This document shows, in pieces, positions 7,807 to 60,812 of a DNA stretch of 64,000 nucleotides; positions within the stretch are counted from its first letter, which is position 1; every line of letters starts with the position of its first letter. The notes beneath the pieces were generated by a model. It was not told the DNA's origin. It worked only from the letters and a program-made list of their open reading frames with translations, and searched no databases. The stretch comes from Octopus vulgaris (taxonomy: Eukaryota). The stretch is from positions 152,024,001 through 152,088,000 of the forward strand of contig OX597815.1 in the NCBI GenBank assembly GCA_951406725.2, written 5' to 3'. The translations under genes were made by a program, and so were the position numbers.

Positions 7807-7925
7807 TTAACACTCGCAGCTTCTATGCCCTGATTCTAGCATCTGAAAGCTCTGTTTTACTCTGGTATTATCATTATCCTGGTCAATATTTGTTAGGGTG
7901 TCAGGAGCAATGCCCAGATAGATAC
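7807..7925 (-). CDS. Death-domain-like exon (middle helices), truncated or decaying
   Basis: Strong acceptor tcttgtttttgtgtcttttgcag; phase-1 translation (G)IYLGIAPDTLTNIDQDNDNTRVKQSFQMLESGHRSCEC* fits the DD pattern LG+…+..I..+……Q.+.ML..W with W replaced by G (TGG>GGG); continues *PALK*. Confidence 0.6.
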
Positions 7926-16044: not shown

Positions 16045-16279
16045 TGGTGTTTTTAGCGTGGCCGTTCGCCAGCCTCGTCTGGCACCTGTGTCGGTGGCAC
16101 ATAAAATCACCCACTACACTCTCGGAGTGGTTGGCGTTAGGAAGGGCATCCAGCTGTAGAAACACTGCCAGATCTGACTGGCCTGGTGCAGCCTTCGGGC
16201 TCCCCAGACCCCAGTTGAACCGTCCAACCCATGCTAGCATGGAAAACGGACGCTAAATGATGATGATGATGATGATGAT
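16045..16279 (+). mobile_element. RTE 3'-tail-derived short element
   Basis: Matches 15645-15872 (cgtggcc…gccagcctcgtctggca…cactacactc…gggcatccagctgtagaaac…atgatgatg). Confidence 0.9.
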
Positions 16280-16976
16280 CTCACTCTCGTGCTAGACTTT
16301 CAGCCAAATTTAGGAGATCCTGCTTGTTCGGCTTAGATTATCTGAAATATCTAAGGTTTTACACTTTATAGTTAAATTTCTATATCTCTATTGGAATTTA
16401 TATTTTATTGTTGTGAGATATTGCTATCATTAATGGTCAACTGGTGACCACTGTGATTTCAGTCAACATTTTTATACTTTCTACTGTGGTACCATGTAAT
16501 AACTTGATATCTAAGTCCATATCAGAGCAAACTAGACTTCCTAAATCTCCTCTCTATATTAAGACATCCTACTTAATCTAACAATGTTGCATTTATCTCA
16601 TTTATTTAACACTTGCTAAGGATTTTTATCACTTAGTTTTGTCTTCCATTAATTATATTTCTGCCATATCTATGATATGCCATTGTCCTCTCAAGTCTAG
16701 TCTTTACTAACCAATATTCTTCTCATTATCTGCTTAATTCCAATGTCAACCAGGGCTTAGCCATCTAAGATCTAGCCACAAACACATAACACACCACTTC
16801 AATTAGGATCATCATACACCTGCTCACTCTCTCTCTCTCTCTGTTAAAGGTTGCCACTGGTAATCTTGAATTTTAACTACCTACATTACAGTTCACCAGA
16901 ATGTCATCTGATTCTTGAAATATTTGAAAACATATACTTGTCATTCATCCTTCTTAATAAAGCAGGTTCTCTTCAG

Positions 16977-17420
16977 GTGAGCAAAGATTAGATCTACACA
17001 GGTGAAATGGACAGTGGTAATGTGCCCTCAAACACTGTGCATTTGCACTCAACATCATGAACTATATATAACCAATCATCCATATATTGCAACGAAAGTA
17101 TCTGGAATGGTACAAAAGAACTGATTCTCAAGAATATAGGTTACCTTTATTTAAATCTCATCTATATATCAAACAAAGTTACCTTCCCCTTGGTAATATC
17201 TCCTTTATCCATGTGGTTGCCATTGATAGGGTAGAAACCAAGAAACCAGAAAATTTGAGGACTTGGAACTTACACCTGTGTAGCAGGTTGTGACTGACAG
17301 AAACTGTCTTGTGATGTTATTGTTAGTATAAGAACAACATCAAAAGGAATATGTAATCCCATTCACGTTACCACTGTTATACTATATTTGTCACTGATGT
17401 TAACTAAAACCAACTAATTA
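16977..17420 (+). pseudogene. Decayed immunoglobulin-domain exon with hydrophobic C-terminal (GPI-signal-like) tail
   Basis: Reads …PSNTVHLH…/KYLEWYKRTDSQEYRLPL…HVVAIDRVETKKPEN/ED(x)GTYTCVAGCD*QKLSCDVIVSIRTTSKGICNPIHVTTVILYLSLMLTKTN*. Shows Ig C-strand WYK, D.G.YTC.A and a G strand, but needs frameshifts and has stops. Confidence 0.55.
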
Positions 17421-18332
17421 CAAAAGGTCGGAGTAATCCTTTATAAAATATACCTAAATAGTATCATAAATATACAGAAATATTTCACATTTTGTTTTAG
17501 GACACAATAACATCTGGACCTTATTGGACTATAGAAGTCAATAATGCCAGTGTGTAGAGAAGTGGTTAAGTGCACAAGAAAAACAGTAGAATTACTTACA
17601 CAGATGGTAATAAGGTTTAAATCTGTTGGGTGAGGGTACAAGATAATGCTATGACAAAATACGTTTAACTTCAGACATACAAATGTAAATCAGTTAATGA
17701 ATAATATCTGATTCATTACCATGTTAACAGTTTGTATATGTAATACAAAAAAAACACTGTCTGACATTGCAATACTAGATATCTATATAAATTGTATATA
17801 ATCTGACTAAAAAATAAGTAATTTTCACTACAGTGAATATGATTATTTCTCAGCACAGATCTATATTGTAGAAGTTCCATCATCATCATGATCGTTGTTT
17901 AATATCCGCTTTCTATGCTGAGGTCTGACTGGGGCTGGCAAGCGAGAAGGCTGCACCAGGATCCAATCTGATCTGATATATATGCATATATTTGTAAACA
18001 TACATATACATGCCCACAGATATATGTATATATATATACATACATATATATTCATAGATATATCACAGTGAAAGTGTTAACTCATATTACAATAGTGATT
18101 TTATTGTTTCACTTTTGACATGTAATGCTGAAATAGTGTAAGAGACAAGAGATTGCTCCAGGATCACATTAGACAAGAATTTGAAAATCTGTCTGGCCCA
18201 TGACGCTGCATGGAGCCTAAGTAAGACGTGTGTGAAATTTGAATGAAATCATGCAGGTAGTTCTCGAGTTTTAGTGATGCACACATACAGGCAGACAGAC
18301 AAACATTTACACTCACACATACATGTATTCTC

Positions 18333-18385
<53 letters not shown>

Positions 18386-18963
18386 ATAATACATATTCTA
18401 ACCTGAGCCATTCTGGGAAGATAGTCTGGCAAGAGATGATATCTCATATCAAACATCAGAGTACTGTAAAACACTGACATCTTCTTAAGATGAAAAATCA
18501 AGAAGAAATTCTGGAGAACGATTTTGTAAACAAACGAAATTATCTTTAACAATTTTTACCACTTAAAAACATTTTCAGTTGAGATTTGTTATTGAATCTC
18601 CTACATTAGAAAGCTGAGAATGATGTCCTTATAAGTACTTTTGACTTTAATTATCACTCTCAGAAGATGTTAATAACATCATTAAGCATCTCTGTTGGCT
18701 CACAACTGACAGTCACTCAGTCTTGTCATTCTCCACCTATCCTTCAAATCACCATTCTTATCCTCATTTTCCCACAACTTTCACTCCCTGCATCCTCATT
18801 ATTCTTCTTTCATCACCTCTCAACTTGTCACCTTGAATAAAAAACACATCATCAGAGCAGTAAGAACTGTCTTCTTTCATGGGATGCAAGAAAAACTGAC
18901 CAATGCTAGTCCTCAAGGAAAAACTTATAGAAATCAATTTGCTATTTTCAGTTTTATACTCAC

Positions 18964-19020
18964 CATGTGTGATTGATGTACATTGAACTGGTGTACTTAA
19001 CTGTTCATTTGGATTTAAGC
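18964..19020 (-). CDS. Micro-exon type A (57 nt, phase 1-1): (G)LNPNEQLSTPVQCTSITH
   Basis: atttcag|GCTTAAATCC…ATCACACATG|gtgagtat; open frame, length a multiple of 3. Confidence 0.7.
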
Positions 19021-21716
19021 CTGAAATACATAATTTCAAGTGTTATAATTTATAGTAAAATTTACCAGCATTCACATTCACACAAAAATCTATAATTATT
19101 AATCTAAACTTTTACGTTTAACAAACATTCACAGTAACACTGACCAAATGATTTTGCAGGTAGACTTTCTAACGCCTGTTGAGATTTTGTGATTGAGCCT
19201 CATACATTACCAAAGCCAACATTGATGTTCTAGTAAGTGACACGGTCTTTGATAATTGGATTCTCAAGGTGTTAGTAAATCATTAACCATCTCACAAATA
19301 ACTGTATCTTAGCTTCATCCATTCGGTCATGTCATGCTCCACCTCTCTTTAATGTCATTGTTCTTATCATCCTTTTCTTGTAACTTTCAGTCCCTGCATC
19401 CTCATTATTCTTCTGTTTTTACTTAAACTTCTCACTTTCTCAACATGTCTTCATGATTGTAAAAACACATGAAAGAGCAATGAGAATTGTATAATATTAT
19501 GAGATGCAAGACAACCTGACCAGTGCTAGCACTATGAGGAAATGGCCCCAGTACACACTTGAAAGTGATTGGTAAATGAGAGGAGACAGCATAATTTTCT
19601 GTGGAACGTTCAATCTAATTGTGGACATTGGAGTCTGGTGCTGCCCCTCTGCTTGCCAGCTGTGGTCAAACTGTCCAACGCAGGCCAGCATGGACAATGG
19701 ACGTAAAATGTTGATGATGATGACAATCTTATTAGTGCCTGTGTTACAATAAAACATACCCAAGAGACTTTATAAAATGGTTGCTGTTAAGATGGTAACT
19801 TGTCAAAGAAAATCCAGAGTATTTACGAGAGATGTGTGGCTACCTCAAGCAGTCAAAGTGGATGTTAACTCTGAATAAGAACTGGCTTGGACATTGATGA
19901 CCCATCTAATCGACGGGAGCATGGAAGCAGATGATGAATGATAATGAGATTATCATTTATTTTTTTGTATTTATTATTTTGCATCTTGCAGCCTGTATAT
20001 AATCTTTAGGACTTGAAACTTACACCTGTGTAGCAGGGTCTGACTGATAGAAACTGCCGTGTGATGTTATTGTTAATATACGAACAACATCAAAAGGAAT
20101 ACTAATCCCATTCATGTTACAACTGTTTTACTATATTTGTCACTGATATTAATTAAAACCAACTAATTACAAAAGGTCACAGTAATGCTTTATATAATAT
20201 ACCTAAATACTATCATAAATATACAGAAATATTTAACATTTTGTTTTAGGACACAATAAAATCTGGACCTTATTGGACTACAGAAGTCAATAATGTCAGT
20301 TTGTAGAGAAGTGGTTGTGTACACAAGACAAACAGTAGAATTATTTACATAGATGGTAATAAGCTTTAAATCTGTTAAGTGAGGGTACAAGATGATGCTG
20401 TTATAAAATCAGGTTAAACTTCAGACATACAAATGTGGATCAGTTAATGAATAATATCTGATTCATTATCATGTTACCGGGTTGTATATGTAATACAAAA
20501 AAAAAACACTGTCTTACATTGCAATACTAGATATCTATATAAATTGTATATAATCTGACTAAAAAATAAGTGACTTTCATTAGAGTGAATATGATTATTT
20601 CTCAGCACAGATCTATATTGTAGACGTTCCATCAAAATCATCATCATCATCATTGTCATCGTCGTTTAATATCTGCTTTCTATGCTTAGGTCTGACTGAT
20701 TTCTGGCAAGCGAGAAGCCTGAACCAGGCTCCAATCTGATATGATATGTATGCATATACATGTAAACATACATATACATGCATACATATATATGCATATA
20801 TATACAGACATATGCATACATAAATATATCACAGTGAACCTATTAACTCACATTACAATAGTGATTTTATTGTTTCACGTTTGACAAGTAATACCGAAAT
20901 AGTGTAAGGGATAAGAGATTGCTCCAGGATCACATTAGGCAAGAATTTGAAAATCTAATTGGCCCATGACGCTGCATGGACCCTAAGTAAGACGTGTGTG
21001 AAATTTGAATGAAATCATGCAGGTAGTTCTCGAGTTTTAGCGATGCACACATACAGACAGACAGACAGACAAACATTTACACTCACACATACATGCATTC
21101 TCAGGTATATATATATATATATATATATATATGGACAATAATACATATTCTAACCTGAGCCATTCTGGGAAGATAGTCTGGCAAGGGATGATATCTCATA
21201 TCAAACATCAGAGTACTGTAAAACTCTGACATCTTCATAAGATGAAAAAATCAAGAAGAAATTCTGGAGAACGATTTTGTAAACAAACGAAATTATCTTT
21301 AACAATTTTTACCACTTAAAAACATTTTCAGTTGAGATTTGTTATTGAATCTCCTACATTAGAAAGCTGAGAATGATGTCCTTATAAGTACTTTTGACTT
21401 TAATTATCACTCTCAGAAGATGTTAATAACATCATTAAGCATCTCTGTTGGCTCACAACTGACAGTCACTCAGTCTTGTCATTCTCCACCTATCCTTCAA
21501 ATCACCATTCTTATCCTCATTTTCCCACAACATTCACTCCCTGCATCCTCATTATTCTTCTTTCATAACCTCTCAACTTGTCACCTTGAATAAAAAACAC
21601 ATCATCAGAGCAGTAAGAACTGTCTTCTTTCATGGGATGCAAGAAAAACTGACCAATGCTAGTCCTCAAGGAAAAACTTATAGAAATCAATTTGCTATTT
21701 TCAGTTTTATACTCAC

Positions 21717-21773
21717 CATGTGTGATTGATGTACATTGAACTGGTGTACTTAACTGTTCATTTGGATTTAAGC
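21717..21773 (-). CDS. Micro-exon type A (57 nt), identical copy
   Basis: Same sequence and splice sites as 18964-19020. Confidence 0.7.
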
Positions 21774-22907
21774 CTGAAATACATAATTTCAAGTGTTATA
21801 ATTTATAGTAAAATGTACCAGCATTCACATTCACACAAAAATCTATAATTATTAACCAAAACTTTTACCTCTTACAAACATTCACAGCAACACTGACCAA
21901 ATGATTTTGCAGGTAGACTTTCTAACGCGTGTTGAGATTTTGTGATTGAGCCTCATACTTTACCAAAGCCAACATTGATGTTCTAGTAAGTAACACGGTC
22001 TTTGAAAATTGGATTCTCAAGGTGTTAATAAATCATTAACCATCTCACAAATAATTGTATCTTAGCTTCATCCATTCGGTCATGTCATGCTCCGACCTCA
22101 CTTTAATGTCATTGTTCTTATCCTCATTTTCTTGTAACTTTCAATCCCTACATCCTCATTATTCTTCCGTTATCACTTAAACTTATCACTTTCTCAACAT
22201 GTCTTCATGATTGTAAAAACACATCAAGGAGCAATGAGAATTGTATAATATTATGAGATGCAAATAACATGACCAGTGCTAGCACTATGAGGAAATGGCC
22301 CCAGTACACACTTGAAAGTGATTGATAAATGAGAGGAGACAGCATAATTTTCTGTGGAACGTTCAACCTAATTGTGGACATTGGATTCTGATATCTCATA
22401 TCAAACATCAGACTACTGTAAAACTCTGACATCTTCATAAGATTGAAAATCAAGAAGAACTTCTGGAGAACGATTTTGTAAACAAACGAAATTATCTTTA
22501 AAATTTTTACCAGTAGAAAAAGGTTTCAGTTGAGATTTGTTATTGAATCTCCTACATTAGAAAGCTGAGAATGATCTTCTTATAAGTACTTTTGACTTGA
22601 ATTATCACTCTCACAAGATGTTAATACATCATCTCTGTAGGCTCACAACTGACAGTCACTCAGTCTTGTCATTCTCCAACTCTCTTTCAAATCACCATGC
22701 TTATCCTCGTTTCTCACAACTTTCACTCCCTGCATCCTCATTATTCTTCCGTCAATATTTCTCAAAGTGTCACCTTGAATGAAAAAACAACATCATAAGA
22801 GCAGTAAGAACTGTCTAATTTTATGGGACGCAAGAGAAACTAACCCATGCTAGTTCCCAAGGGAAAACTTAGAGAAATCGATTTGGTACTTTCAGTGTTA
22901 TACTCAC

Positions 22908-22964
22908 CATGATAGATTGATGCATTTTCAACTGGTGGACGTGGCTGTTCATTTAGATATAAAA
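22908..22964 (-). CDS. Micro-exon type B (57 nt, phase 1-1): (V)LYLNEQPRPPVENASIYH
   Basis: aattcag|TTTTATATCTAAATGAACAG…TCTATCATG|gtgagtat; homologous to type A (NEQ…PV…SI.H). Confidence 0.7.
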
Positions 22965-25652
22965 CTGAATTTCATAATTTCAAGTGTTATAATTTATAGT
23001 AAAATTTACCTGCGTACACATTCACACAAAAAGCTATAATTATTAATCTAAACTTTTACCATTTACGAACTTTCACAGCAACACTGACAAAATGATTTCA
23101 CAGTGAGACATTCTAATGCTTGTTGAGATTTTGTGATTGAGCCTCATACTTTACCAAAGCCAACATTGATGTTCTAGTAGATAACACTGTCTTTGATTAT
23201 TGGATTCTTAAGATGTTAGTAAATCATTAACCATCTCACAAATAATTGTATCTTAGCTTCATCCATTCGGTCATGTCATTCTCCACCTCTCTTTCAAGTC
23301 ATTGTTCTTATCCTCCTTTTCTTGTAACTTTCACTCCCTACATCCTCATTATTCTTCCGTTATCACTTAAACTTATCACTTTCTCAACATGTCTTCATGA
23401 TTGTAAAAACACATCAAAGAGCAATGAGAATTGTATAATATTATAAGATGTAAGACAACCTGACCAGTGCTAGCACTATGAGGAAATGGCCCCCGTACAC
23501 ACTTGAAAGTGATTGATAAATGAGAGGAGACAGCATAATTTTGAGTGGAACGTTCAATCTAATTGTGGACATTGGATTCTGATGCTGCCCATCAGCTTGT
23601 CAGGTCTGGTCAAACTGTCTAACCCAGGCCAGCATCGACAATGGTGATGATGACAATCTTATTAGTGCTTGTGTTACAATAAAACATACCCAAGAGACTT
23701 TATAAAACGGTTGCTGTTAAGATGGTATCTTGTCATAGAAAATCCAGAGTATTTAAGAGAGATGTGTGGCTACCTCAAGAAGTCAAAGTGGATGTTAAGT
23801 CTGAATAAGAACTGGCTTGGACATTGATGACACATCTAATCGACGGGAGCATGGAAGCAGATGATGAATGATGATGACATTATCATTAACTTTTTTGTAT
23901 TTATTATTTTGCATCTTGCAGCCTGTATATAATCTTTAGGACTTGAAACTTACACCTGTGTAGCAGGGTCTGACTTACAGAAACTGTCGTGTGATGTTAT
24001 TGTTAATATAAGATCAACATCAAAAAGAACATCTAATCTCATTCAAGTTACTACTGTTTTACTACATTTGTCACTGATATTAATTAAGACCAACTATTTA
24101 CAAAAGGTCACAGTAATGCTTCATATAATATATCTAAATAGTATCATAAATATACAGAAATATTTAACATTTTATTTTAGGACACAATAACATCTGAACC
24201 TTATTGGACTATAGGAGTCAATAATGTCAGTTTGTTGAGAAGTGGTTGTGTGCACAAGAAAAACAGTAGAATTACTTACACAGATGGTAATAAAGTTTAA
24301 ATCTGTTGGATGAGAGTAGATGATGCTGTTATAAAATCAGGTTAAATTTCAGACGTACAAATGTAAATCAATAAATGAATAATATCTGATTCATTACATG
24401 ATTCATGTTAACAGTTTGTATATGTAATACAAAAAAATACTGTCTGACATTGCAATACTAGATATCTATATAAATTGTATATATTCTGAGTAAAAAAGAA
24501 GTGACTTTCATTACAGTGAATATGATTATGTCTCAGCACAGATCTATATTGTAGAAGTTCCATCATCATCGTTATCATCACCATGATTGTTGTCGTCAAT
24601 TAATATCTGCTTTCCATGCTGACATGTATTGGACGGTCTGACTGAGAGCTGGCAAGCCAGAAGGTTGCACCAGTCTCCAAACTGATCTGACATGTGTGCA
24701 TATATATGTAAACATACATATACATGCATACATATATATGCATATATATACAGACATATACATACACAAATATATCACAGTGAAAGTATTAACTCACATT
24801 ACAATGGTGATTCTATTGTTTCACTTTTGACAAGTAATACTGAAATAGTGTAAGAGATAAGAGATTGCTCTTAGAACACATTAGGCAAGAAGTTGAAAAT
24901 TTGTTTGGCCCATGACACTGCATGGACCTGAAGTGAGGCATGTGTGAAATTTGTATGAAATCAGTTGGGTAGTTCTCGAGTTTTAGTGATGCACACATAC
25001 ATACAGACACACATTTACATGCACACATACATGCATTCTCAGTAATATATATATATATATATATCTTTATATAGACTATAAAACATATTCTAACCTGAGA
25101 TATTCTGGGAAGATAATCCAGCGAGAAATAATATAGCATATCACATATTAGACTACCATAAAAATCTGACAACCTCATAAGATGATCAATCAAGAAGAAC
25201 TTCTAGAGAACGATTTTATAAACAAAGGAAATTATATTTAACAATTTTCACCACTTAAAAATATTATCAGTTGAGATTTGTTATTTAATCTCCTACATTA
25301 GAAAGCTGAGAATGATGTTCTTATAAGTACTTTTGACTTAAATATCAGTTTCCCAAGATTTTAATAACATCATTAATCATCACTGTTGGCTGGCAACTGA
25401 CAGTCATTCAGTCTTGTCATTCTCCAACTCTCTTTCAAATAACCATTATTATCCTCATTTTCTCACAACTTTCACTCCCTGCATCCTCATTATTCTTCTG
25501 TCATCACTTCTCAATGTGTCCCCTTGAATGAAAAAACATCATAAGAGCAGTAAGAACTGTCAAATTTTATGGGATGCAAGAAAAACTGACCAATGCTAGT
25601 CCTCAAGGGAAAACTTATAGAAATCAATTTAGTACTTTAGTTTTATACTCAC

Positions 25653-25688
25653 CGACTGGCGCTTCATTTCCATCCCGCATGTGTGGGT
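25653..25688 (-). CDS. Micro-exon type C (36 nt, phase 1-1): (D)PHMRDGNEAPV
   Basis: atttcag|ACCCACACATGCGGGATGGAAATGAAGCGCCAGTCG|gtgagtat; 21/36 G+C within AT-rich flanks. Confidence 0.72.
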
Positions 25689-28394
25689 CTGAAATTCATA
25701 ATTTCAAGTGTTATAATTTATAGTAAAATTTACCTGCATACACATTCAAACAAAAAGCGATAATTATTAATCTAAACTTTTACCAATTAAAGACATTAAC
25801 AGCAACACTGACCAAATGATTTCACAGTTAGACTTTCTAATGTTTGTTCAGATTTTGTGATTGAGCCTCATACTTTACCAAAGCCAAATTTGATGTTCCA
25901 GTAGATAACACTGTCTTTGATAATTGGATTCTTAAGATGTTAGTAAATCATTAACCATCTCACAAATAATTGTATCTTAGCTTCATCCATTCGGTCATGT
26001 CATTCTCCACCTCTCTTTCAAGTCATTGTTCTTATCATCCTTTTCTTGTAACTTTCACTCCCTACATCCTCATTATTCTTCCGTTATCACTTAAACTTAT
26101 CACTTTCTCAACATGTCTTCATGATTGTAAAAACACATCAGAGAGCAATGAGAATTGTATCATATTATGAGATGCAAATAACATGACCAGTGCTAGCACT
26201 ATGAGGAAATGGCCCCAGTACACACTTGAAAGTGATTGATAAATGAGAGGAGACAGCATAATTTTCTGTGGAACGTTCAATCTAATTGTGGACATTGGAT
26301 TCTGATGCTGCCCATCAGCTTGTCGGCTCTGGTCAAACTGTCTAACCCAGGCCAGCATGGACAATGGACGTAAAATGATGATGATGATGATGACAATCTT
26401 ATTAGTGCCTGTGTTACAATAAAACATACCCAAGAGACTTTATAAAATTGTTGCTGTTAAGATGGTATCTTGTCAGAGAAAATCCAGAGTATTTAAGAGA
26501 GATGTGTGGCTACCTCAAGCAGTCAAAGTGGATGTTAAGTCTGAATAAGAACTGGCTTGGATATTGATGACCCATCTAATCGACGGGAGCATGGAAGCAG
26601 ATGATGAATGATAATGAGATTATCATTTATTTTTTTGTATTTATTATTTTGCATCTTGCAGCCTGTATATAATCTTTAGGACTTGAAACTTACACCTGTG
26701 TAGCAGGGTCTGACTTACAGAAACTGTCGTGTGATGTTATTGTTAATATAAGATCAACATCAAAAAGAACATCTAATCTCATTCATGTTACTACTGTTTT
26801 ACTACATTTGTCACTGATATTAATTAAGACCAACTATTTACAAAAGGTCACAGTAATGCTTCATATAATATATCTAAATAGTATCATAAATATACAGAAA
26901 TATTTAACATTTTATTTTAGGACACAATAACATCTGAACCTTATTGGACTATAGGAGTCAATAATGTCAGTTTGTTGAGAAGTGGTTGTGTGCACAAGAA
27001 AAACAGTAGAATTACTTACACAGATTGTTAATAAAGTTTAAATCTGTTGGATGAGAGTAGATGATGCTGTTATAAAATCAGGTTAAATTTCAGACGTACA
27101 AATGTAAATCAATAAATGAATAATATCTGATTCATTACATGATTCATGTTAACAGTTTGTATATGTAATACAAAAAAAATACTGTCTGACATTGCAATAC
27201 TAGATATCTATATAAATTGTATATATTCTGAGTAAAAAGAAGTGACTTTCATTACAGTGAATATGATTATGTCTCAGCACAGATCTATATTGTAGAAGTT
27301 CCATCATCATCGTTATCATCATCATGATTGTTGTCGTCAATTAATATCTGCTTTCCATGCTGACATGTATTGGATGGTCTGACTGAGAGCTGGCAAGCCA
27401 GAAGGTTGCACCAGTCTCCAAACTGATCTGACATGTGTGCATATATATGTAAACATACATATACATGCATACATATATATGCATATATATACAGACATAT
27501 ACATACACAAATATATCACAGTGAAAGTATTAACTCACATTACAATGGCGATTCTACTGTTTCACTTTTGACAAGTAATACTGAAATAGTGTAAGAGATA
27601 AGAGATTGCTCTTAGAACACATTAGGCAAGAAGTTGAAAATTTGTTTGGCCCATGACACTGCATGGACCTGAAGTGAGGCATGTGTGAAATTTGTATGAA
27701 ATCAGCTGGGTAGTTCTCGAGTTTTAGTGATGCACACATACATACAGACACACATTTACATGCACACATACATGCATTCTCAGTAATATATATATATATA
27801 TATCTTTATATAGACTATAAAACATATTCTAACCTGAGATATTCTGGGAAGATAATCCAGCGAGAAATAATATAGCATATCACATATTAGACTACCGTAA
27901 AAATCTGACAACCTCATAAGATGATCAATCAAGAAGAACTTCTAAAGAACGATTTTATAAACAAAGGAAATTATCTTTAACAATTTTTACCACTTAAAAA
28001 TATTTCCAGTTTAGATTTGTTATTTAATCTCCTACATTAGAAAGCTGAGAATAATGTTCTAATAAGTACTTTTGACTTTAATTATCAGTTTCCCAAGATG
28101 TTAATAACATCATTAATCATCACTGTTGGCTGGCAACTGACAGTCACTCAGTCTTGTCATTCTCCAACTCTCTTTCAAATCACCATTATTATCCTCGTTT
28201 TCTCACAACTTTCACTCCCTGCATCCTCATTATTCTTCTGTCATCACTTCTCAATGTGTCACCTTGAATGAAAGAACATATCATAAGAGCAGTAAGAACT
28301 GTCTAATTTTATGGGACGCAAGAAAAACTGACCAATGCTAGTCCTCAAGGGAAAACTTATAGAAATCAATTTAGTACTTTAGTTTTATACTCAC

Positions 28395-28430
28395 CGACTG
28401 GCGCTTCATTTCCATCCCGCATGTGTGGGT
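28395..28430 (-). CDS. Micro-exon type C (36 nt)
   Basis: Identical to 25653-25688 with intact ttcag/gtgagt. Confidence 0.72.
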
Positions 28431-31136
28431 CTGAAATTCATAATTTCAAGTGTTATAATTTATAGTAAAATTTACCTGCATACACATTCACACAAAAAGC
28501 TATAATTATTAATCTAAACTTTTACCAATTAAAGACATTAACAGCAACACTGACCAAATGATTTCACAGTTAGTCTTTCTAATCTTTGTTCAGATTTTGT
28601 GATTGAGCCTCATACTTTACCGAAGCCAAATTTGATGTTCCAGTAGATAACACGGTCTTTGATAATTGGATTCTTAAGATGTTAGTAAATCATTAACCAT
28701 CTCACAAATAATTGTATCTTAGCTTCATCCATTCGGTCATGTCATTCTCCACCTCTCTTTCAAGTCATTGTTCTTATCATCCTTTTCTTGTAACTTTCAC
28801 TCCCTACATCCTCATTATTCTTCCGTTATCACTTAAACTTATCACTTTCTTAACATGTCTTCATGATTGTAAAAACACATCAGAGAGCAATGAGAATTGT
28901 ATCATATTATGAGATGCAAATAACATGACCAGTGCTAGCACTATGAGGAAATGGCCTCAGTACACACTTGAAAGTGATTGATAAATGAGAGGAGACAGCA
29001 TAATTTTCTGTGGAACGTTCAATCTAATTGTGGACATTGGATTCTGATGCTGCCCATCAGCTTGTCGGCTCTGGTCAAACTGTCTAACCCAGGCCAGCAT
29101 GGACAATGGACGTAAAATGATGATGATGATGATGACAATCTTATTAGTGCCTGTGTTACAATAAAACATACCCAAGAGACTTTATAAAATTGTTGCTGTT
29201 AAGATGGTATCTTGTCATAGAAAATCCAGAGTATTTAAGAGAGATGTGTGGCTACTTCAAGCAGTCAAAGTGGATGTTAAGTCTGAATAAGAACTGGCTT
29301 GGATATTGATGACCCATCTAATCGACGGGAGCATGGAAGCAGATGATGAATGATAATGACATTATCATTTATTTTTTTGTATTTATTATTTTGCATCTTG
29401 CAGCCTGTATATAATCTTTAGGACTTGAAACTTACACCTGTGTAGCAGGGTCTGACTTACAGAAACTGTCGTGTGATGTTATTGTTAATATAAGATCAAC
29501 ATCAAAAAGAACATCTAATCTCATTCATGTTACTACTGTTTTACTACATTTGTCACTGATATTAATTAAGACCAACTATTTACAAAAGGTCACAGTAATG
29601 CTTCATATAATATATCTAAATAGTATCATAAATATACAGAAATATTTAACATTTTATTTTAGGACACAATAACATCTGAACCTTATTGGACTATAGGAGT
29701 CAATAATGTCAGTTTGTTGAGAAGTGGTTGTGTGCACAAGAAAAACAGTAGAATTACTTACACAGATGGTAATAAAGTTTAAATCTGTTGGATGAGAGTA
29801 GATGATGCTGTTATAAAATCAGGTTAAATTTCAGACATACAAATGTAAATCAATAAATGAATAATATCTGATTCATTACATGATTCATGTTAACAGTTTG
29901 TATATGTAATACAAAAAAAATACTGTCTGACATTGCAATACTAGATATCTATATAAATTGTATATATTCTGAGTAAAAAAGAAGTGACTTTCATTACAGT
30001 GAATATGATTATGTCTCAGCACAGATCTATATTGTAGAAGTTCCATCATCATCGTTATCATCATCATGATTGTTGTCGTCAATTAATATCTGCTTTCCAT
30101 GCTGACATGTATTGGACGGTCTGACTGAGAGCTGGCAAGCCAGAAGGTTGCACCAGTCTCCAAACTGATCTGACATGTGTGCATATATATGTAAACATAC
30201 ATATACATGCATACATATATATGCATATATATACAGACATATACATACACAAATATATCACAGTGAAAGTATTAACTCACATTACAATGGCGATTCTACT
30301 GTTTCACTTTTGACAAGTAATACTGAAATAGTGTAAGAGATAAGAGATTGCTCTTAGAACACATTAGGCAAGAAGTTGAAAATTTGTTTGGCCCATGACA
30401 CTGCATGGACCTGAAGTGAGGCATGTGTGAAATTTGTATGAAATCAGCTGGGTAGTTCTCGAGTTTTAGTGATGCACACATACATACAGACACACATTTA
30501 CATGCACACATACATGCATTCTCAGTAATATATATATATATATATCTTTATATAGACTATAAAACATATTCTAACCTGAGATATTCTGGGAAGATAATCC
30601 AGCGAGAAATAATATAGCATATCACATATTAGACTACCGTAAAAATCTGACAACCTCATAAGATGATCAATCAAGAAGAACTTCTAGAGAACGATTTTAT
30701 AAACAAAGGAAATTATCTTTAACAATTTTCACCACTTAAAAATATTTCCAGTTGAGATTTGTTATTTAATATCCTACATTAGAAAGCTGAGAATGATGTT
30801 CTTATAAGTACTTTTGACTTTAATTATCAGTTTCCCAAGATGTTAATAACATCATTAAATATCACTGTTGGCTGGCAACTGACAGTCACTCAGTCTTGTC
30901 ATTCTCCAACTCTCTTTCAAATCACCATTATTATCCTCGTTTTATCACAACTTTCACTCCCTGCATCCTCATTATTCTTCTGTCATCACTTCTCAATGTG
31001 TCACCTTGAATGAAAGAACATATCATAAGAGCAGTAAGAACTGTCTAATTTTATGGGACGCAAGAAAAACTGACCAATGCTAGTCCTCAAGGGAAAACTT
31101 ATAGAAATCAATTTAGTACTTTAGTTTTATACTCAC

Positions 31137-31172
31137 CGACTGGCGCTTCATTTCCATCCCGCATGTGTGGGT
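31137..31172 (-). CDS. Micro-exon type C (36 nt)
   Basis: Identical copy, splice sites intact. Confidence 0.72.
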
Positions 31173-33887
31173 CTGAAATTCATAATTTCAAGTGTTATAA
31201 TTTAAAGTAAAATTTACCTGCATACACATTTACACGAAAAGCTATAATTATTAATCTAAACTTTTACCAATTAAAGACATTAACAGCAACACTGACCAAA
31301 TGATTTCACAGTTAGACTTTCTAATGTTTGTTCAGATTTTGTGATTGAGCCTCATACTATAACAAAGCCAAATTTGATGTTCCAGTAGATAACACTGTCT
31401 TTGATAATTGGATTCTTAAGATGTTAGTAAATCATTAACCATCTCACAAATAATTGTATCTTAGCTTCATCCATTCGGTCATGTCATTCTCCACCTCTCT
31501 TTCAAGTCATTGTTCTTATCATCCTTTTCTTGTAACTTTCACTCCCTACATCCTCATTATTCTTCCGTTATCACTTAAACTTATCACTTTCTCAACATGT
31601 CTTCATGATTGTAAAAACACATCAGAGAGCAATGAGAATTGTATCATATTATGAGATGCAAATAACATGACCAGTGCTAGCACTATGAGGAAATGGCCCC
31701 AGTACACATTTGAAAGTGATTGATAAATGAGAGGAGACAGCATAATTTTCTGTGGAACGTTCAATCTAATTGTGGACATTGGATTCTGATGCTGCCCATC
31801 AGCTTGTCGGCTCTGGTCAAACTGTCTAACCCAGGCCAGCATGGACAATGGACGTAAAATGATGATGATGATGATGATGACAATCTTATTAGTGCCTGTG
31901 TTACAATAAAACATACCCAAGAGACTTTATAAAATGGTTGCTGTTAAGATGGTATCTTGTCATAGAAAATCCAGAGTATTTAAGAGAGATGTGTGGCTAC
32001 CTCAAGCAGTCAAAGTGGATGTTAAGTCTGAATAAGAACTGGCTTGGATATTGATGACCCATCTAATCGACGGGAGCATGGAAGCAGATGATGAATGATA
32101 ATGACATTATCATTTATTTTTTTGTATTTATTATTTTGCATCTTGCAGCCTGTATATAATCTTTAGGACTTGAAACTTACACCTGTGTAGCAGGGTCTGA
32201 CTTACAGAAACTGTCGTGTGATGTTATTGTTAATATAAGATCAACATCAAAAAGAACATCTAATCTAATTCATGTTACTACTGTTTTACTACATTTGTCA
32301 CTGATATTAATTAAGACCAACTATTTACAAAAGGTCACAGTAATGCTTCATATAATATATCTAAATAGTATCATAAATATACAGAAATATTTAACATTTT
32401 ATTTTAGGACACAATAACATCTGAACCTTATTGGACTATAGGAGTCAATAATGTCAGTTTGTTGAGAAGTGGTTGTGTGCACAAGAAAAACAGTAGAATT
32501 ACTTACACAGATGGTAATAAAGTTTAAATCTGTTGGATGAGAGTAGATGATGCTGTTATAAAATCAGGTTAAATTTCAGACGTACAAATGTAAATCAATA
32601 AATGAATAATATCTGATTCATTACATGATTCATGTTAACAGTTTGTATATGTAATACAAAAAAAATACTGTCTGACATTGCAATACTAGATATCTATATA
32701 AATTGTATATATTCTGAGTAAAAAATAAGTGACTTTCATTACAGTGAATATGATTATGTCTCAACACAGATCTATATTGTAGAAGTTCCATCATTATCGT
32801 TATCATCATCATGATTGTTGTCGTCAATTAATATCTGCTATCCATGCTGACATGTATTGGACGGTCTGACTGAGAGCTGGCAAGCCAGAAGGTTGCACCA
32901 GTCTCCAAACTGATCTGACATGTGTGCATATATATGTAAACATACATATACATGCATACATATATATGCATATATATACAGACATATACATACACAAATA
33001 TATCACAGTGAAAGTATTAACTCACATTACAATGGCGATTCTATTGTTTCACTTTTGACAAGTAATACTGAAATAGTGTAAGAGATAAGAGATTGCTCTT
33101 AGAACACATTAGGCAAGAAGTTGAAAATTTGTTTGGCCCATGACACTGCATGGACCTGAAGTAAGGCATGTGTGAAATTTGTATGAAATCAGCTGGGTAA
33201 TTCTCGAGTTTTAGTGATGCACACATACATACAGACACACATTTACATGCACACATACATGCATTCTCAGTAATATATATATATATATATATATATCTTT
33301 ATATAGACTATAAAACATATTCTAACCTGAGATATTCTGGGAAGATAATCCAGCGAGAAATAATATAGCATATCACATATTAGACTACCGTAAAAATCTG
33401 ACAACCTCATAAGATTGAAAATCAAGAAGAACTTCTAGGGAACGATTTTATAAACAAAGGAAATTATCTTTAACAATTTTCACCACTTAAAAATATTTCC
33501 AGTTCAGATTTGTTATTTAATCTCCTACATTAGAAAGCTGAGAATGATGTTCTTATAAGTACTTTTGACTTTAATTATGAGTTTCCCAAGATGTTAATAA
33601 CATCATTAATCATCACTGTTGGCTGGCAACTGACAGTCACTCAGTCTTGTCATTCTCCAACTCTCTTTCAAATCACCATTATTATCCTCGTTTTCTCACA
33701 ACTTTCACTCCCTGCATCCTCATTATTCTTCTGTCATCACTTCTCAATGTGTCACCTTGAATGAAAGAACATATCATAAGAGCAGTAAGAACTGTCTAAT
33801 TTTATGGGATGCAAGAAAAACTGACCAATGCTAGTCCTCAAGGGAAAACTTATAGAAATCAATTTAGTACTTTAGTTTTATACTCAC

Positions 33888-33923
33888 CGACTGGCGCTTC
33901 ATTTCCATCCCGCATGTGTGGGT
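33888..33923 (-). CDS. Micro-exon type C (36 nt)
   Basis: Identical copy, splice sites intact. Confidence 0.72.
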
Positions 33924-36633
33924 CTGAAATTCATAATTTCAAGTGTTATAATTTATAGTAAAATTTACCTGCATACACATTCAAACAAAAAGCTATAATT
34001 ATTAATCTAAACTTTTACCAATTAAATACATTAACAGCAACACTGACCAAATGATTTCACAGTTAGACTTTCTAATGTTTGTTCAGATTTTGTGATTGAG
34101 CCTCATACTATACCAAAGCCAAATTTGATGCTCCAGTAGATAACACTGTCTTTGATAATTGGATTCTTAAGATGTTAGTAAATCATTAACCATCTCACAA
34201 ATAATTGTATCTTAGCTTCATCCATTCGGTCATGTCATTCTCCACCTCTCTTTCAAGTCATTGTTCTTATCATCCTTTTCTTGTAACTTTCACTCCCTAC
34301 ATCCTCATTATTCTTCCGTTATCACTTAAACTTATCACTTTCTCAACATGTCTTCATGATTGTAAAAACACATCAGAGAGCAATGAGAATTGTATCATAT
34401 TATGAGATGCAAATAACATGACCAGTGCTAGCACTATGAGGAAATGGCCCCAGTACACATTTGAAAGTGATTGATAAATGAGAGGAGACAGCATAATTTT
34501 CTGTGGAACGTTCAATCTAATTGTGGACATTGGATTCTGATGCTGCCCATCAGCTTGTCGGCTCTGGTCAAACTGTCTAACCCAGGCCAGCATGGACAAT
34601 GGACGTAAAATGATGATGATGATGATGACAATCTTATTAGTGCCTGTGTTACAATAAAACATACCCAAGAGACTTTATAAAATGGTTGCTGTTAAGATGG
34701 TATCTTGTCATAGAAAATCCAGAGTATTTAAGAGAGATGTGTGGCTACCTCAAGCAGTCAAAGTGGATGTTAAGTCTGAATAAGAACTGGCTTGGATATT
34801 GATGACCCATCTAATCGACGGGAGCATGGAAGCAGATGATGAATGATAATGACATTATCATTTATTTTTTTTGTATTTATTATTTTGCATCTTGCAGCCT
34901 GTATATAATCTTTAGGACTTGAAACTTACACCTGTGTAGCAGGGTCTGACTTACAGAAACTGTCGTGTGATGTTATTGTTAATATAAGATCAACATCAAA
35001 AAGAACATCTAATCTAATTCATGTTACTACTGTTTTACTACATTTGTCACTGATATTAATTAAGACCAACTATTTACAAAAGGTCACAGTAATGCTTCAT
35101 ATAATATATCTAAATAGTATCATAAATATACAGAAATATTTAACATTTTATTTTAGGACACAATAACATCTGAACCTTATTGGACTATAGGAGTCAATAA
35201 TGTCAGTTTGTTGAGAAGTGGTTGTGTGCACAAGAAAAACAGTAGAATTACTTACACAGATGGTAATAAAGTTTAAATCTGTTGGATGAGAGTAGATGAT
35301 GCTGTTATAAAATCAGGTTAAATTTCAGACGTACAAATGTAAATCAATAAATGAATAATATCTGATTCATTACATGATTCATGTTAACAGTTTGTATATG
35401 TAATACAAAAAAAATACTGTCTGACATTGCAATACTAGATATCTATATAAATTGTATTATATTCTGAGTAAAAAATAAGTGACTTTCATTACAGTGAATA
35501 TGATTATGTCTCAACACAGATCTATATTGTAGAAGTTCCATCATTATCGTTATCATCATCATGATTGTTGTCGTCAATTAATATCTGCTTTCCATGCTGA
35601 CATGTATTGGACGGTCTGACTGAGAGCTGGCAAGCCAGAAGGTTGCACCAGTCTCCAAACTGATCTGACATGTGTGCATATATATGTAAACATACATATA
35701 CATGCATACATATATATGCATATATATACAGACATATACATACACAAATATATCACAGTGAAAGTATTAACTCAAATTACAATGGCGATTCTATTGTTTC
35801 ACTTTTGACAAGTAATACTGAAATAGTGTAAGAGATAAGAGATTGCTCTTAGAACACATTAGGCAAGAAGTTGAAAATTTGTTTGGCCCATGACACTGCA
35901 TGGACCTGAAGTAAGGCATGTGTGAAATTTGTATGAAATCAGCTGGGTAGTTCTCGAGTTTTAGTGATGCACACATACATACAGACACACATTTACATGC
36001 ACACATACATGCATTCTCAGTAATATATATATATATATATATCTTTATATAGACTATAAAACATATTCTAACCTGAGATATTCTGGGAAGATAATCCAGC
36101 GAGAAATAATATAGCATATCACATATTAGACTACCGTAAAAATCTGACAACCTCATAAGATGATCAATCAAGAAGAACTTCTAGAGAACGATTTTATAAA
36201 CAAAGGAAATTATCTTTAACAAGTTTCACCACTTAAAAATATTTCCAGTTGAGATTTGTTATTTAATCTCCTACATTAGAAAGCTGAGAATGATGTTCTT
36301 ATAAGTACTTTTGACTTTAATTATCAGTTTCCCAAGATGTTAATAACATCATTAAATATCACTGTTGGCTGGCAACTGACAGTCACTCAGTCTTGTCATT
36401 CTCCAACTCTCTTTCAAATCACCATTATTATCCTCGTTTTCTCACAACTTTCACTCCCTGCATCCTCATTATTCTTCTGTCATCACTTCTCAATGTGTCA
36501 CCTTGAATGAAAGAACATATCATAAGAGCAGTAAGAACTGTCTAATTTTATGGGACGCAAGAAAAACTGACCAATGCTAGTCCTCAAGGGAAAACTTATA
36601 GAAATCAATTTAGTACTTTAGTTTTATACTCAC

Positions 36634-36669
36634 CGACTGGCGCTTCATTTCCATCCCGCATGTGTGGGT
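36634..36669 (-). CDS. Micro-exon type C (36 nt)
   Basis: Identical copy, splice sites intact. Confidence 0.72.
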
Positions 36670-39405
36670 CTGAAATTCATAATTTCAAGTGTTATAATTT
36701 ATAGTAAAATTTACCTGCATACACATTCACACAAAAAGCTATAATTATTAATCTAAACTTTTACCAATTAAAGACATTAACAGCAACACTGACCAAATGA
36801 TTTCACAGTTAGACTTTCTAATGTTTGTTCAGATTTTGTGATTGAGCCTCATACTATAACAAAGCCAAATTTGATGTTCCAGTAGATAACACTGTCTTTG
36901 ATAATTGGATTCTTAAGATGTTAGTAAATCATTAACCATCTCACAAATAATTGTATCTTAGCTTCATCCATTCGGTCATGTCATTCTCCACCTCTCTTTA
37001 ATGTCATTGTTCTTATCATCCTTTTCTTGTAACTTTCACTCCCTACATCCTCATTATTCTTCCGTTATCACTTAAACTTATCACTTTCTAAACCTGTCTT
37101 CATGATTGTAAAAGCACATCAGAGAGCAATGAGAATTGTATCATATTATGAGATGCAAATAACATGACCAGTGCTAGCACTATGAGGAAATGGCCCCAGT
37201 ACACACTTGAAAGTGATTGATAAATGAGAGGAGACAGCATAATTTTCTGTGGAACGTTCAATCTAATTGTGGACATTGGATTCTGATGCTGCCCATCAGC
37301 TTGTCGGCTCTGGTCAAACTGTCTAACCCAGGCCAGCATGGACAATGGACGTAAAATGATGATGATGATGATGACAATCTTATTAGTGCCTGTGTTACAA
37401 TAAAACATACCCAAGAGACTTTATAAAATGGTTGCTGTTAAGATGGTATCTTGTCATAGAAAATCCAGAGTATTTAAGAGAGATGTGTGGCTACCTCAAG
37501 CAGTCAAAGTGGATGTTAAGTCTGAATAAGAACTGGCTTGGATATTGATGACCCATCTAATCGACGGGAGCATGGAAGCAGATGATGAATGATAATGACA
37601 TTATCATTTATTTTTTTGTATTTATTATTTTGCATCTTGCAGCCTGTATATAATCTTTAGGACTTGAAACTTACACCTGTGTAGCAGGGTCTGACTTACA
37701 GAAACTGTCGTGTGATGTTATTGTTAATATAAGATCAACATCAAAAAGAACATCTAATCTCATTCATGTTACTACTGTTTTACTACATTTGTCACTGATA
37801 TTAATTAAGACCAACTATTTACAAAAGGTCACAGTAATGCTTCATATAATATATCTAAATAGTATCAAAAATATACAGAAATATTTAACATTTTATTTTA
37901 GGACACAATAACATCTGAACCTTATTGGACTATAGGAGTCAATAATGTCAGTTTGTTGAGAAGTGGTTGTGTGCACAAGAAAAACAGTAGAATTACTTAC
38001 ACAGATGGTAATAAAGTTTAAATCTGTTGGATGAGAGTAGATGATGCTGTTATAAAATCAGGTTAAATTTCAGACGTACAAATGTAAATCAATAAATGAA
38101 TAATATCTGATTCATTACATGATTCATGTTAACAGTTTGTATATGTAATACAAAAAAAATACTGTCTGACATTGCAATACTAGATATCTATATAAATTGT
38201 ATATATTCTGAGTAAAAAAGAAGTGACTTTCATTACAGTGAATATGATTATGTCTCAGCACAGATCTATATTGTAGAAGTTCCATCATCATCGTTATCAT
38301 CATCATGATTGTTGTCGTCAATTAATATCTGCTTTCCATGCTGACATGTATTGGACGGTCTGACTGAGAGCTGGCAAGCCAGAAGGTTGCACCAGTCTCC
38401 AAACTGATCTGACATGTGTGCATATATATGTAAACATACATATACATGCATACATATATATGCATATATATACAGACATATACATACACAAATATATCAC
38501 AGTGAAAGTATTAACTCACATTACTATGGCGATTCTACTGTTTCACTTTTGACAAGTAATACTGAAATAGTGTAAGAGATAAGAGATTGCTCTTAGAACA
38601 CATTAGGCAAGAAGTTGAAAATTTGTTTGGCCCATGACACTGCATGGACCTGAAGTGAGGCATGTGTGAAATTTGTATGAAATCAGCTGGGTAGTTCTCG
38701 AGTTTTAGTGATGCACACATACATACAGACACACATTTACATGCACACATACATACAGACACACATTTACATGCACACATACATGCATTCTCAGTAATAT
38801 ATATATATATATATCTTTATATAGACTATAAAACATATTCTAACCTGAGATATTCTGGGAAGATAATCCAGCGAGAAATAATATAGCATATCACATATTA
38901 GACTACCGTAAAAATCTGACAACCTCATAAGATGATCAATCAAGAAGAACTTCTAAAGAACGATTTTATAAACAAAGGAAATTATCTTTAACAATTTTTA
39001 CCACTTAAAAATATTTCCAGTTTAGATTTGTTATTTAATCTCCTACATTAGAAAGCTGAGAATAATGTTCTAATAAGTACTTTTGACTTTAATTATCAGT
39101 TTCCCAAGATGTTAATAACATCATTAATCATCACTGTTGGCTGGCAACTGACAGTCACTCAGTCTTGTCATTCTCCAACTCTCTTTCAAATCACCATTAT
39201 TATCCTCGTTTTCTCACAACTTTCACTCCCTGCATCCTCATTATTCTTCTGTCATCACTTCTCAATGTGTCACCTTGAATGAAAGAACATATCATAAGAG
39301 CAGTAAGAACTGTCTAATTTTATGGGACGCAAGAAAAACTGACCAATGCTAGTCCTCAAGGGAAAACTTATAGAAATCAATTGAGTACTTTAGTTTTATA
39401 CTCAC

Positions 39406-39441
39406 CGACTGGCGCTTCATTTTCATCCCGCATGTGTGGGT
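39406..39441 (-). CDS. Micro-exon type C variant (36 nt): (D)PHMRDENEAPV
   Basis: Plus strand cattttcatcccg instead of catttccatcccg, i.e. GGA>GAA (G>E); splice sites intact. Confidence 0.7.
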
Positions 39442-42147
39442 CTGAAATTCATAATTTCAAGTGTTATAATTTATAGTAAAATTTACCTGCATACACATTC
39501 ACACAAAAAGCTATAATTATTAATCTAAACTTTTACCAATTAAAGACATTAACAGCAACACTGACCAAATGATTTCACAGTTAGTCTTTCTAATCTTTGT
39601 TCAGATTTTGTGATTGAGCCTCATACTTTACCGAAGCCAAATTTGATGTTCCAGTAGATAACACGGTCTTTGATAATTGGATTCTTAAGATGTTAGTAAA
39701 TCATTAACCATCTCACAAATAATTGTATCTTAGCTTCATCCATTCGGTCATGTCATTCTCCACCTCTCTTTCAAGTCATTGTTCTTATCATCCTTTTCTT
39801 GTAACTTTCACTCCCTACATCCTCATTATTCTTCCGTTATCACTTAAACTTATCACTTTCTTAACATGTCTTCATGATTGTAAAAACACATCAGAGAGCA
39901 ATGAGAATTGTATCATATTATGAGATGCAAATAACATGACCAGTGCTAGCACTATGAGGAAATGGCCTCAGTACACACTTGAAAGTGATTGATAAATGAG
40001 AGGAGACAGCATAATTTTCTGTGGAACGTTCAATCTAATTGTGGACATTGGATTCTGATGCTGCCCATCAGCTTGTCGGCTCTGGTCAAACTGTCTAACC
40101 CAGGCCAGCATGGACAATGGACGTAAAATGATGATGATGATGATGACAATCTTATTAGTGCCTGTGTTACAATAAAACATACCCAAGAGACTTTATAAAA
40201 TTGTTGCTGTTAAGATGGTATCTTGTCATAGAAAATCCAGAGTATTTAAGAGAGATGTGTGGCTACTTCAAGCAGTCAAAGTGGATGTTAAGTCTGAATA
40301 AGAACTGGCTTGGATATTGATGACCCATCTAATCGACGGGAGCATGGAAGCAGATGATGAATGATAATGACATTATCATTTATTTTTTTGTATTTATTAT
40401 TTTGCATCTTGCAGCCTGTATATAATCTTTAGGACTTGAAACTTACACCTGTGTAGCAGGGTCTGACTTACAGAAACTGTCGTGTGATGTTATTGTTAAT
40501 ATAAGATCAACATCAAAAAGAACATCTAATCTCATTCATGTTACTACTGTTTTACTACATTTGTCACTGATATTAATTAAGACCAACTATTTACAAAAGG
40601 TCACAGTAATGCTTCATATAATATATCTAAATAGTATCATAAATATACAGAAATATTTAACATTTTATTTTAGGACACAATAACATCTGAACCTTATTGG
40701 ACTATAGGAGTCAATAATGTCAGTTTGTTGAGAAGTGGTTGTGTGCACAAGAAAAACAGTAGAATTACTTACACAGATGGTAATAAAGTTTAAATCTGTT
40801 GGATGAGAGTAGATGATGCTGTTATAAAATCAGGTTAAATTTCAGACATACAAATGTAAATCAATAAATGAATAATATCTGATTCATTACATGATTCATG
40901 TTAACAGTTTGTATATGTAATACAAAAAAAATACTGTCTGACATTGCAATACTAGATATCTATATAAATTGTATATATTCTGAGTAAAAAATAAGTGACT
41001 TTCATTACAGTGAATATGATTATGTCTCAGCACAGATCTATATTGTAGAAGTTCCATCATCATCGTTATCATCATCATGATTGTTGTCGTCAATTAATAT
41101 CTGCTTTCCATGCTGACATGTATTGGACGGTCTGACTGAGAGCTAGCAAGCCAGAAGGTTGCACCAGTCTCCAAACTGATCTGACATGTGTGCATATATA
41201 TGTAAACATACATATACATGCATACATATATATGCATATATATACAGACATATACATACACAAATATATCACAGTGAAAGTATTAACTCACATTACAATG
41301 GCGATTCTATTGTTTCACTTTTGACAAGTAATACTGAAATAGTGTAAGAGATAAGAGATTGCTCTTAGAACACATTAGCCAAGAAGTTGAAAATATGTTT
41401 GGCCCATGACACTGCATGGACCTGAAGTAAGGCATGTGTGAAATTTGTATGAAATCAGCTGGGTAGTTCTCGAGTTTTAGTGATGCACACATACATACAG
41501 ACACACATTTACATGCACACATACATGCATTCTCAGTAATATATATATATATATATCTTTATATAGACTATAAAACATATTCTAACCTGAGATATTCTGG
41601 GAAGATAATCCAGCGAGAAATAATATAGCATATCACATATTAGACTACCGTAAAAATCTGACAACCTCATAAGATGATCAATCAAGAAGAACTTCTAGAG
41701 AACGATTTTATAAACAAAGGAAATTATCTTTAACAATTTTCACCACTTAAAAATATTTCCAGTTGAGATTTGTTATTTAATATCCTACATTAGAAAGCTG
41801 AGAATGATGTTCTTATAAGTACTTTTGACTTTAATTATCAGTTTCCCAAGATGTTAATAACATCATTAAATATCACTGTTGGCTGGCAACTGACAGTCAC
41901 TCAGTCTTGTCATTCTCCAACTCTCTTTCAAATCACCATTATTATCCTCGTTTTCTCACAACTTTCACTCCCTGCATCCTCATTATTCTTCTGTCATCAC
42001 TTCTCAATGTGTCACCTTGAATGAAAGAACATATCATAAGAGCAGTAAGAACTGTCTAATTTTATGGGACGCAAGAAAAACTGACCAATGCTAGTCCTCA
42101 AGGGAAAACTTATAGAAATCAATTTAGTACTTTAGTTTTATACTCAC

Positions 42148-42183
42148 CGACTGGCGCTTCATTTCCATCCCGCATGTGTGGGT
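42148..42183 (-). CDS. Micro-exon type C (36 nt)
   Basis: Identical copy, splice sites intact. Confidence 0.72.

Positions 42184-60757: not shown

Positions 60758-60812
<55 letters not shown>

Follow-up and report, generated by a model that had tools for sequence, protein, structure and literature searches.

Positive selection and unit recombination as the probable source of divergent linker exons in an octopus leucine-rich repeat adhesion GPCR

A stretch of 64,000 nucleotides from Octopus vulgaris (contig OX597815.1, positions 152,024,001 to 152,088,000; G000:C2:152024001-152088000; hereafter the window) contains three short exon types, A, B and C, embedded in similar introns. We analyzed the window together with 800 kb of its surroundings. 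By alignment, A, B and C are versions of one short exon that is repeated along with its introns in the predicted cytoplasmic linker of a leucine-rich repeat (LRR) adhesion G protein-coupled receptor (GPCR). We favour, with a probability of about 0.68, the reading that positive selection and recombination of whole units have acted on these linker exons, and it is likely that selection diversified the putative intracellular docking sites of the receptor.

The exons lie on the minus strand in equivalent slots (ttcag before the exon and gtgagtata after it, phase 1-1), 17 of them within the window. Together with their introns they make up an array of tandem units, each about 2.75 kb long (17255..64000, unstranded), that extends just beyond the window end, where a 66-nt exon of a second type (type II) is followed by the seven-transmembrane (7TM) exons. 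Exon A occurs in two identical copies of 57 nt and 35% GC, copy 1 (18964-19020) being the final slot exon ahead of the death-domain exons and copy 2 (LNPNEQLSTPVQCTSITH) lying at 21717-21773. Exon B (LYLNEQPRPPVENASIYH; 22908-22964) also has 57 nt. Exon C, first noted at 25653-25688, has only 36 nt and 58% GC, and is repeated in 13 units of about 2.75 kb over 25653..58657; twelve of the 13 exons are identical (PHMRDGNEAPV), the copy at 39406-39441 encoding PHMRDENEAPV. The first type-I exon in transcript order, B' (61386-61443, minus strand), is B-like and 58 nt long. It has one A more than B, which shifts the frame to LYLK and a stop, unless B' is skipped or the extra letter is an assembly error. 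Without B' the array contributes 235 codons, and with it the reading frame stops at once. The coordinates, lengths and GC contents given for A, B and C in an earlier model-made note on this DNA (the original prediction) were correct.

The array belongs to an Octopus LRR–GAIN/GPS–7TM adhesion GPCR, in which it follows the final 7TM exon and precedes the death-domain exon. One of the upstream exons is a 100% match to an Octopus vulgaris protein named adhesion GPCR G6-like (P0001). When the O. sinensis protein XP_029651540.2 (P0002) and an O. bimaculoides protein (P0004) were mapped by tblastn, signal/LRR, HRM, GAIN-region, GPS and 7TM exons were found upstream on the minus strand and a death-domain exon downstream, at window position 7925; the HRM match is weak (E 0.037) and the GAIN-region label comes from position. 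Three features of adhesion GPCRs are present, namely a GPS motif before the first transmembrane helix (TM1), a secretin-type 7TM domain and a long ectodomain with adhesion modules. The GPS (Pfam PF01825) was detected in P0001-P0004, the corresponding exon of the window's gene being CSCNHLTSFALL, and the 7TM domain (7tm_2, PF00002) in P0002 and P0004, while the TM3-4 exon of the window's gene matches PF00002 at E 0.0028, under the curated cut-off. LRR domains are found by Pfam in P0002 and P0004, and many matches to 24-codon LRR exons lie upstream on the same strand as the window's gene. All 12 HRM-to-TM7 exons of this gene are open with matching phases, and they end in phase 1, as the slots require. 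The O. sinensis model, which derives from another assembly, has the same tail, with one type-II exon, eleven C, two A and the terminal exon. The best non-octopus matches of the 7TM region are vertebrate ADGRG6/GPR126, at about 30-33% identity. In the octopus proteins, LRRs replace the N-terminal domains PF00431 and PF00354 of mammalian ADGRG6 (which we take to be CUB and pentraxin), both absent from the Pfam scans of P0001-P0004 and present in the mammalian matches, and one octopus protein has a death domain. The database label 'G6-like' denotes likeness, not shown orthology.

One public contig, from sequencing run X18, equals exon A over 57 nt with 0 mismatches, and its loose end runs into window positions 7894-7923; these 30 loose letters were found once in 864 kb. 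The contig is a spliced junction from exon A to the terminal coding exon (7807..7925, minus strand), which encodes the C-terminal part of the death domain (IYLGIAPDT...RSCEC, then a stop) and is 51 nt shorter than in two paralogs. Runs X17 and X18 were taken as RNA by guess. Reads from 4 of the 24 listed runs were compared with 21560-23400 only, and the low read cover of B in this interval is no evidence.

We compared divergence inside the exons with that of about 490 flank sites, excluding splice signals, by Fisher tests. A and B differ at 15/57 exon and 57/490 flank positions (p 3.6e-3), A and C at 13/27 and 53/489 (p 3.8e-6), and B and C at 14/27 and 41/488 (p 3.5e-8). The original claim that the flanks are nearly the same and the exons sharply different thus stands as a contrast, with flanks that are 88-92% identical among A, B and C units.

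Within 0.8 Mb there are four paralogous loci (G1, G3, G4 and G5) with the same intron scaffold as the window's gene (G2). From G2-G5 we collected 38 type-I units with both flanks (17, 7, 6 and 8, respectively), leaving out one 36-nt exon without an upstream flank match and eight type-II exons. All 38 exons fit one 66-nt pattern, with a gap of 9 nt in the 57-nt class or of 30 nt in the 36-nt class, and the net loss of 21 nt in C relative to A and B is made up of +9 and -30 nt in this alignment. The view that C has only NE…PV in common with the other types had to be qualified, as C is identical at 29 of 36 positions to a 36-nt exon of G3 (SHMQDVYEEPV), a pair whose excess over the flanks is not significant (p 0.078). 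A DNA contig in run X2 represents a further variant, which begins like C and ends like A/B. Given the colinearity of the 38 exons, C is a homologue of the A/B family, linked to it by intermediates. In the alignment, two short repeats of the ACAGCCA type flank the missing 30 nt, which suggests a microhomology deletion. Ordinary indels at neutral rates, raised originally as a route from A/B to C, can explain the length, by deletion, and not the substitution rate.

To quantify substitution we used the 21 distinct in-frame exons that remain after removal of 3 frameshifted exons and 14 duplicates from the 38. Their mean distance is 0.34 in the exon and 0.104 in the flanks, about threefold, with nonsynonymous (pN) and synonymous (pS) differences per site of 0.355 and 0.204. 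Exon distance exceeds flank distance in 205 and pN exceeds pS in 170 of the 210 pairs, which are not independent, and diversity at codon positions 1, 2 and 3 is 0.38, 0.31 and 0.20, the third being the least variable. A codon model fitted on the exons' own tree gave a ratio of nonsynonymous to synonymous rates (dN/dS, ω) of 2.9, with 2ΔlnL 10.9 against ω = 1 and tree lengths of 3.24 for dN, 1.12 for dS and 0.78 for the flanks. The ratio also exceeds 1, significantly in each case, in G2+G5 (2ΔlnL 11.9), in G3+G4 (6.4) and in the 13 long exons (7.9). In 160 neutral simulations (60 with rate variation, 50 with tenfold CpG mutation and 50 with recombination in mid-exon) ω never reached 2.9, the maxima being 2.0-2.5, and we reject CpG hypermutation, rate variation and recombination as its source. 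These results, together with pN 0.27 and pS 0.11 between A and B, bear out the earlier suggestion of accelerated, positively selected exon evolution.

The same contrast was examined in the rest of the gene by comparing the window's gene with its paralogs. HRM-to-TM4 exons, which served for the ectodomain comparison (the LRR exons lie outside it), show no excess (0.018 against 0.024 in the flanks), apart from the TM2 (0.105) and TM3-4 (0.129) exons of G5. The TM5-7 exon (0.119 against 0.070) and death-domain exon 2 (0.143 against 0.046) both exceed their flanks, with pN > pS. The exon excess is therefore on the cytoplasmic side and not in the HRM-GAIN ectodomain. The idea of a recognition gene agrees with the LRR ectodomain, but the part that evolves fast is cytoplasmic. 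Within the slot exons, the codon shared by all types (NE/YE) is Asn in 13 of the 21, Tyr in 4, Leu in 3 and Phe in 1. An ITAM/ITIM (immunoreceptor tyrosine-based activation or inhibitory motif) reading of the paralog tyrosines was discarded, as their spacing does not match the consensus.

The units also recombine, a contribution that the original prediction did not mention. Approximately unbiased (AU) tests, in which the use of each data set's own best tree biases toward rejection, show that the exon data reject the flank trees and vice versa (p <= 1e-3) and that upstream and downstream flanks reject each other (p ~1e-4). The C-like 36-nt exons of three genes cluster with a bootstrap of 93 and their flanks do not, and the distance between the B' and C units drops to 0.00-0.03 beyond about 1.1 kb on the 5' side of the exon. 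Twelve whole C units differ by a mean of 0.9%, and units four apart are the closest, with 3 differences between C3 and C7 and 8 between C2 and C6; this higher-order repeat (28395-50394) points to a recent duplication of about 11 kb. The mutual rejection of exon and flank trees argues that the introns recombine as well, and unequal crossing-over or conversion likely multiplies and shuffles the units and adds to the contrast between exon and flank.

Several results, beside the bias of the tree tests, weigh against selection as the leading cause. The selection data amount to 21 codons only, the 36-nt exons alone give no significant result (2ΔlnL 2.1, n=8), and C compared with its closest paralog exon has no nonsynonymous excess (pN 0.21, pS 0.32). 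The synonymous tree length is 1.4 times that of the flanks (1.12 against 0.78), so that intron homogenisation contributes to the exon/flank contrast. The acidic Tyr motifs and Ser/Thr runs of the slot exons are putative docking sites, presumed from general motif patterns. B and C were not seen spliced into mRNA among the reads compared. Finally, three of the four paralogs (G1, G3 and G4) have frameshifts in the 7TM region, 3 of the 38 type-I exons, B' among them, are 1 nt out of frame, and 1 of the 8 type-II exons is frameshifted. Some of these frameshifts may be assembly errors; decay may by now affect much of the cluster, and selection may lie partly in the past.

The alternative that survives best, although we regard it as unlikely, is that intron homogenisation alone produced the pattern, with old exon lineages held apart while gene conversion keeps the introns young, and no fast evolution of the exons, an argument that has been made for SmPoMuc. 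The discordance among exon, upstream and downstream trees, the clustering of C-like exons apart from their flanks, the near identity of B' and C introns away from the exon and a pS of about twice the flank distance all agree with it. It predicts, however, that dN does not exceed dS in the exon, which is opposite to the tree lengths found and to the low variability of third positions, and 0 of the 50 simulated runs with mid-exon recombination gave an ω of 2.9. The closest published counterpart is the repeated exon 2 of the SmPoMuc genes of Schistosoma mansoni (PMC2576457; this and the other papers are cited from the parts available to us), where a short exon and its flanking introns are likewise arranged in tandem, introns are more alike than exon types, and there are up to about 20 units per gene, microsatellites within units and recombination between genes. 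SmPoMuc proteins are parasite mucins whose exon types, according to the authors, are kept apart by purifying selection (PMC2576457), whereas the octopus exons are predicted to be cytoplasmic and have an ω of 2.9.

The origin of the slot exons may be linked to the death domain. This domain is complete in P0004 (Pfam PF00531) and, by exon content, in two paralogs, and is incomplete in the window's gene, where exon 2 is truncated and exon 1 is broken: its remnant (16275..16341, minus strand) has lost 1 nt and the donor GT and carries an insertion of about 230 bp. This fits the direct junction from A to the terminal exon. Intact death-domain exon 1 of the paralogs has 72 nt and phase 1-1, and its flanks match the slot flanks in register. 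It agrees with the slot downstream flank at 35 of 42 positions, where 13 other exons of the gene reach only 10-22, and the local scores of its flanks (37 and 49; 8-19 for other exons) were reached in 0 of 300 shuffles; in the G5 flank test the best downstream match is a neighbouring slot and not the donor of exon 1 itself. The exon sequences themselves have no significant likeness (best 5/300 shuffles in 15 comparisons), only the flanks matching. Because the in-register flanks are common to both, slot exons and death-domain exon 1 likely go back to one ancestral unit, and the linker exons may descend from exon 1, a direction that we infer. Exon 1 is itself repeated in G1 and G4 (G000:C2:151941673-151944082 and 152479653-152482205), with two intact copies and one degenerate copy; in G5 one slot exon follows exon 1, and the G3 copy has a stop. 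An apparent stop in the TM5-7 exon of G5 proved to be an alignment artefact. In O. bimaculoides (P0004 / P0110) the homologous linker is an internal tandem repeat of the QSTSQ type before a whole death domain, another route to a longer linker.

Selection on a low-complexity linker ahead of a death domain, below an LRR ectodomain, could also reflect an intracellular arms race, in which the linker would be a bait or target of proteases or effectors of pathogens or parasites, and cutting it would release the death domain. [quoted passage not shown] In our analysis it clusters with P0004, which from HRM to 7TM matches exons of the window's gene at 62-90%. In the CARD8/NLRP1 tripwire (PMC10249858, available part), a positively selected unstructured region is likewise joined to a death-fold domain, and the protein also contains an autoproteolytic domain. 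The octopus protein differs from it in being a membrane receptor with an extracellular GPS cut, no FIIND and, in the window's gene, a broken death domain; disorder of its linker is predicted from composition only. The broken death domain speaks against an arms race, as do the 12 identical C exons among 13, which are not varied baits, and the acceleration of TM5-7, which suits a change of signalling better. We consider this explanation improbable. A broader speculation, about which we are only slightly less doubtful, concerns a family of LRR adhesion GPCRs in octopus skin. Its linker exons would stem from death-domain exon 1 and would now form a modular, fast-evolving library of cytoplasmic baits or docking sites in an arms race with pathogens, while paralogs with and without the death domain would work in pairs, as signalling receptor and decoy. 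Such a system would be the GPCR equivalent of tripwire sensors or of paired immune receptors.

Relaxed constraint, by which the tail would be a dispensable spacer and the contrast a product of drift, small numbers and local mutation bias, draws on the frameshifts listed above and on the fact that the window's gene has lost death-domain exon 1. We give it very little weight: neutrality predicts equal exon and flank distances and an ω of about 1, both of which were rejected, and the differences that separate the main length classes, 9 and 30 nt, are divisible by three. For the past history of the exons, decay is already largely refuted. Least credible of all is the insertion of C into its slot from a foreign or spliced template, since the A/B-to-C change stopping at the splice sites and the GC content of C, the highest of the 21 exons (0.58 against 0.35-0.52), are outweighed by a C that fits the family pattern without extra gaps, by the intermediates and by the 13 genome-wide matches to its 36-mer with no more than 3 mismatches, none of which lies outside the window (a search that would miss a donor with more mismatches or one absent from the assembly), which together make an outside template, as proposed originally, unnecessary. 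In snake three-finger toxins (ASSET or accelerated exon evolution; PMC2474615, available part), intron segments are highly similar and exons sharply different, as here; ASSET exchanges unrelated segments in a folded secreted toxin, whereas the octopus variants are colinear homologues in the array of one gene.

From the gene context, the homology of exon types, the nonsynonymous excess, the discordant trees and the spliced junction, we infer the following history for selected and recombining linker exons. The starting point would be the tandem duplication of an exon unit of phase 1-1, a probable relative of death-domain exon 1. Frame-keeping deletions of 9 nt, and of 30 nt between short repeats, would have generated the 57- and 36-nt types. 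Selection would then have driven amino-acid changes, including the repeated gain or loss of Tyr at NE/YE and of Ser/Thr runs, which would alter docking of kinases, SH2 proteins or arrestin. Unequal crossing-over would have multiplied C recently and would keep the mid-introns alike. Finally, decay of the death domain in the window's gene may have yielded a receptor with altered or decoy output.

Other features of the cluster were recorded. Type-II exons are acidic, 66-129 nt long, and begin at an acceptor about 200 nt further upstream, which type-I units still contain in silent form. Those at G000:C2:152440898-152476393 and 151932529 have GAT-rich acidic runs with the tyrosines YDEI, YEHL, YSEV and YEVL. 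G3 and G4 (G000:C2:152326000-152438500) are near-identical inverted copies joined at a 100-N assembly gap, and near another gap the tail of G1 runs opposite to its 7TM exons; both places, G3/G4 and G1, may be partly misassembled. The TM5-7 exon has at least 55 matches in the genome, 4 of them close, and four more distant octopus proteins have short tails. The last intron of the window's gene holds a decayed element resembling a long interspersed nuclear element (LINE; 12216-15340, plus strand), which we take to be of the RTE type, whose endonuclease- and reverse-transcriptase-like frames are interrupted by stops. A second LINE-like fragment lies at about 5775-6700, with many copies in the 864 kb. 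The intron ahead of the TM5-7 exon (C2:152091400-152095600) contains about 4 kb of degenerate GGAT-type satellite, which G3 and G4 have too.

Introns more conserved than the exons between them are already known from SmPoMuc and snake toxins; for the setting in a GPCR tail we found no published description of an exon array in a literature search that did not extend to subscription papers. The octopus-specific adhesion GPCR group 3 has been reported to form tandem clusters with branch-level dN/dS above 1 and no positively selected sites; tail exon arrays are not described in the main text, where 'intracellular' and 'C-termin' occur 0 times (PMC6408891, available part). The present signal is located on the cytoplasmic linker exons, and places on cytoplasmic exons the branch-level selection reported for this group. 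Adaptation of receptor families is usually sought in their ligand-binding outside, whereas here the core ectodomain diverges about as much as the introns and the signalling side is faster, the unit of change being a single symmetric micro-exon. The array is also a visible case of linker exons that probably arose from a domain exon, and it would offer swap-ready modules for studying how the tails of adhesion GPCRs set their outputs.

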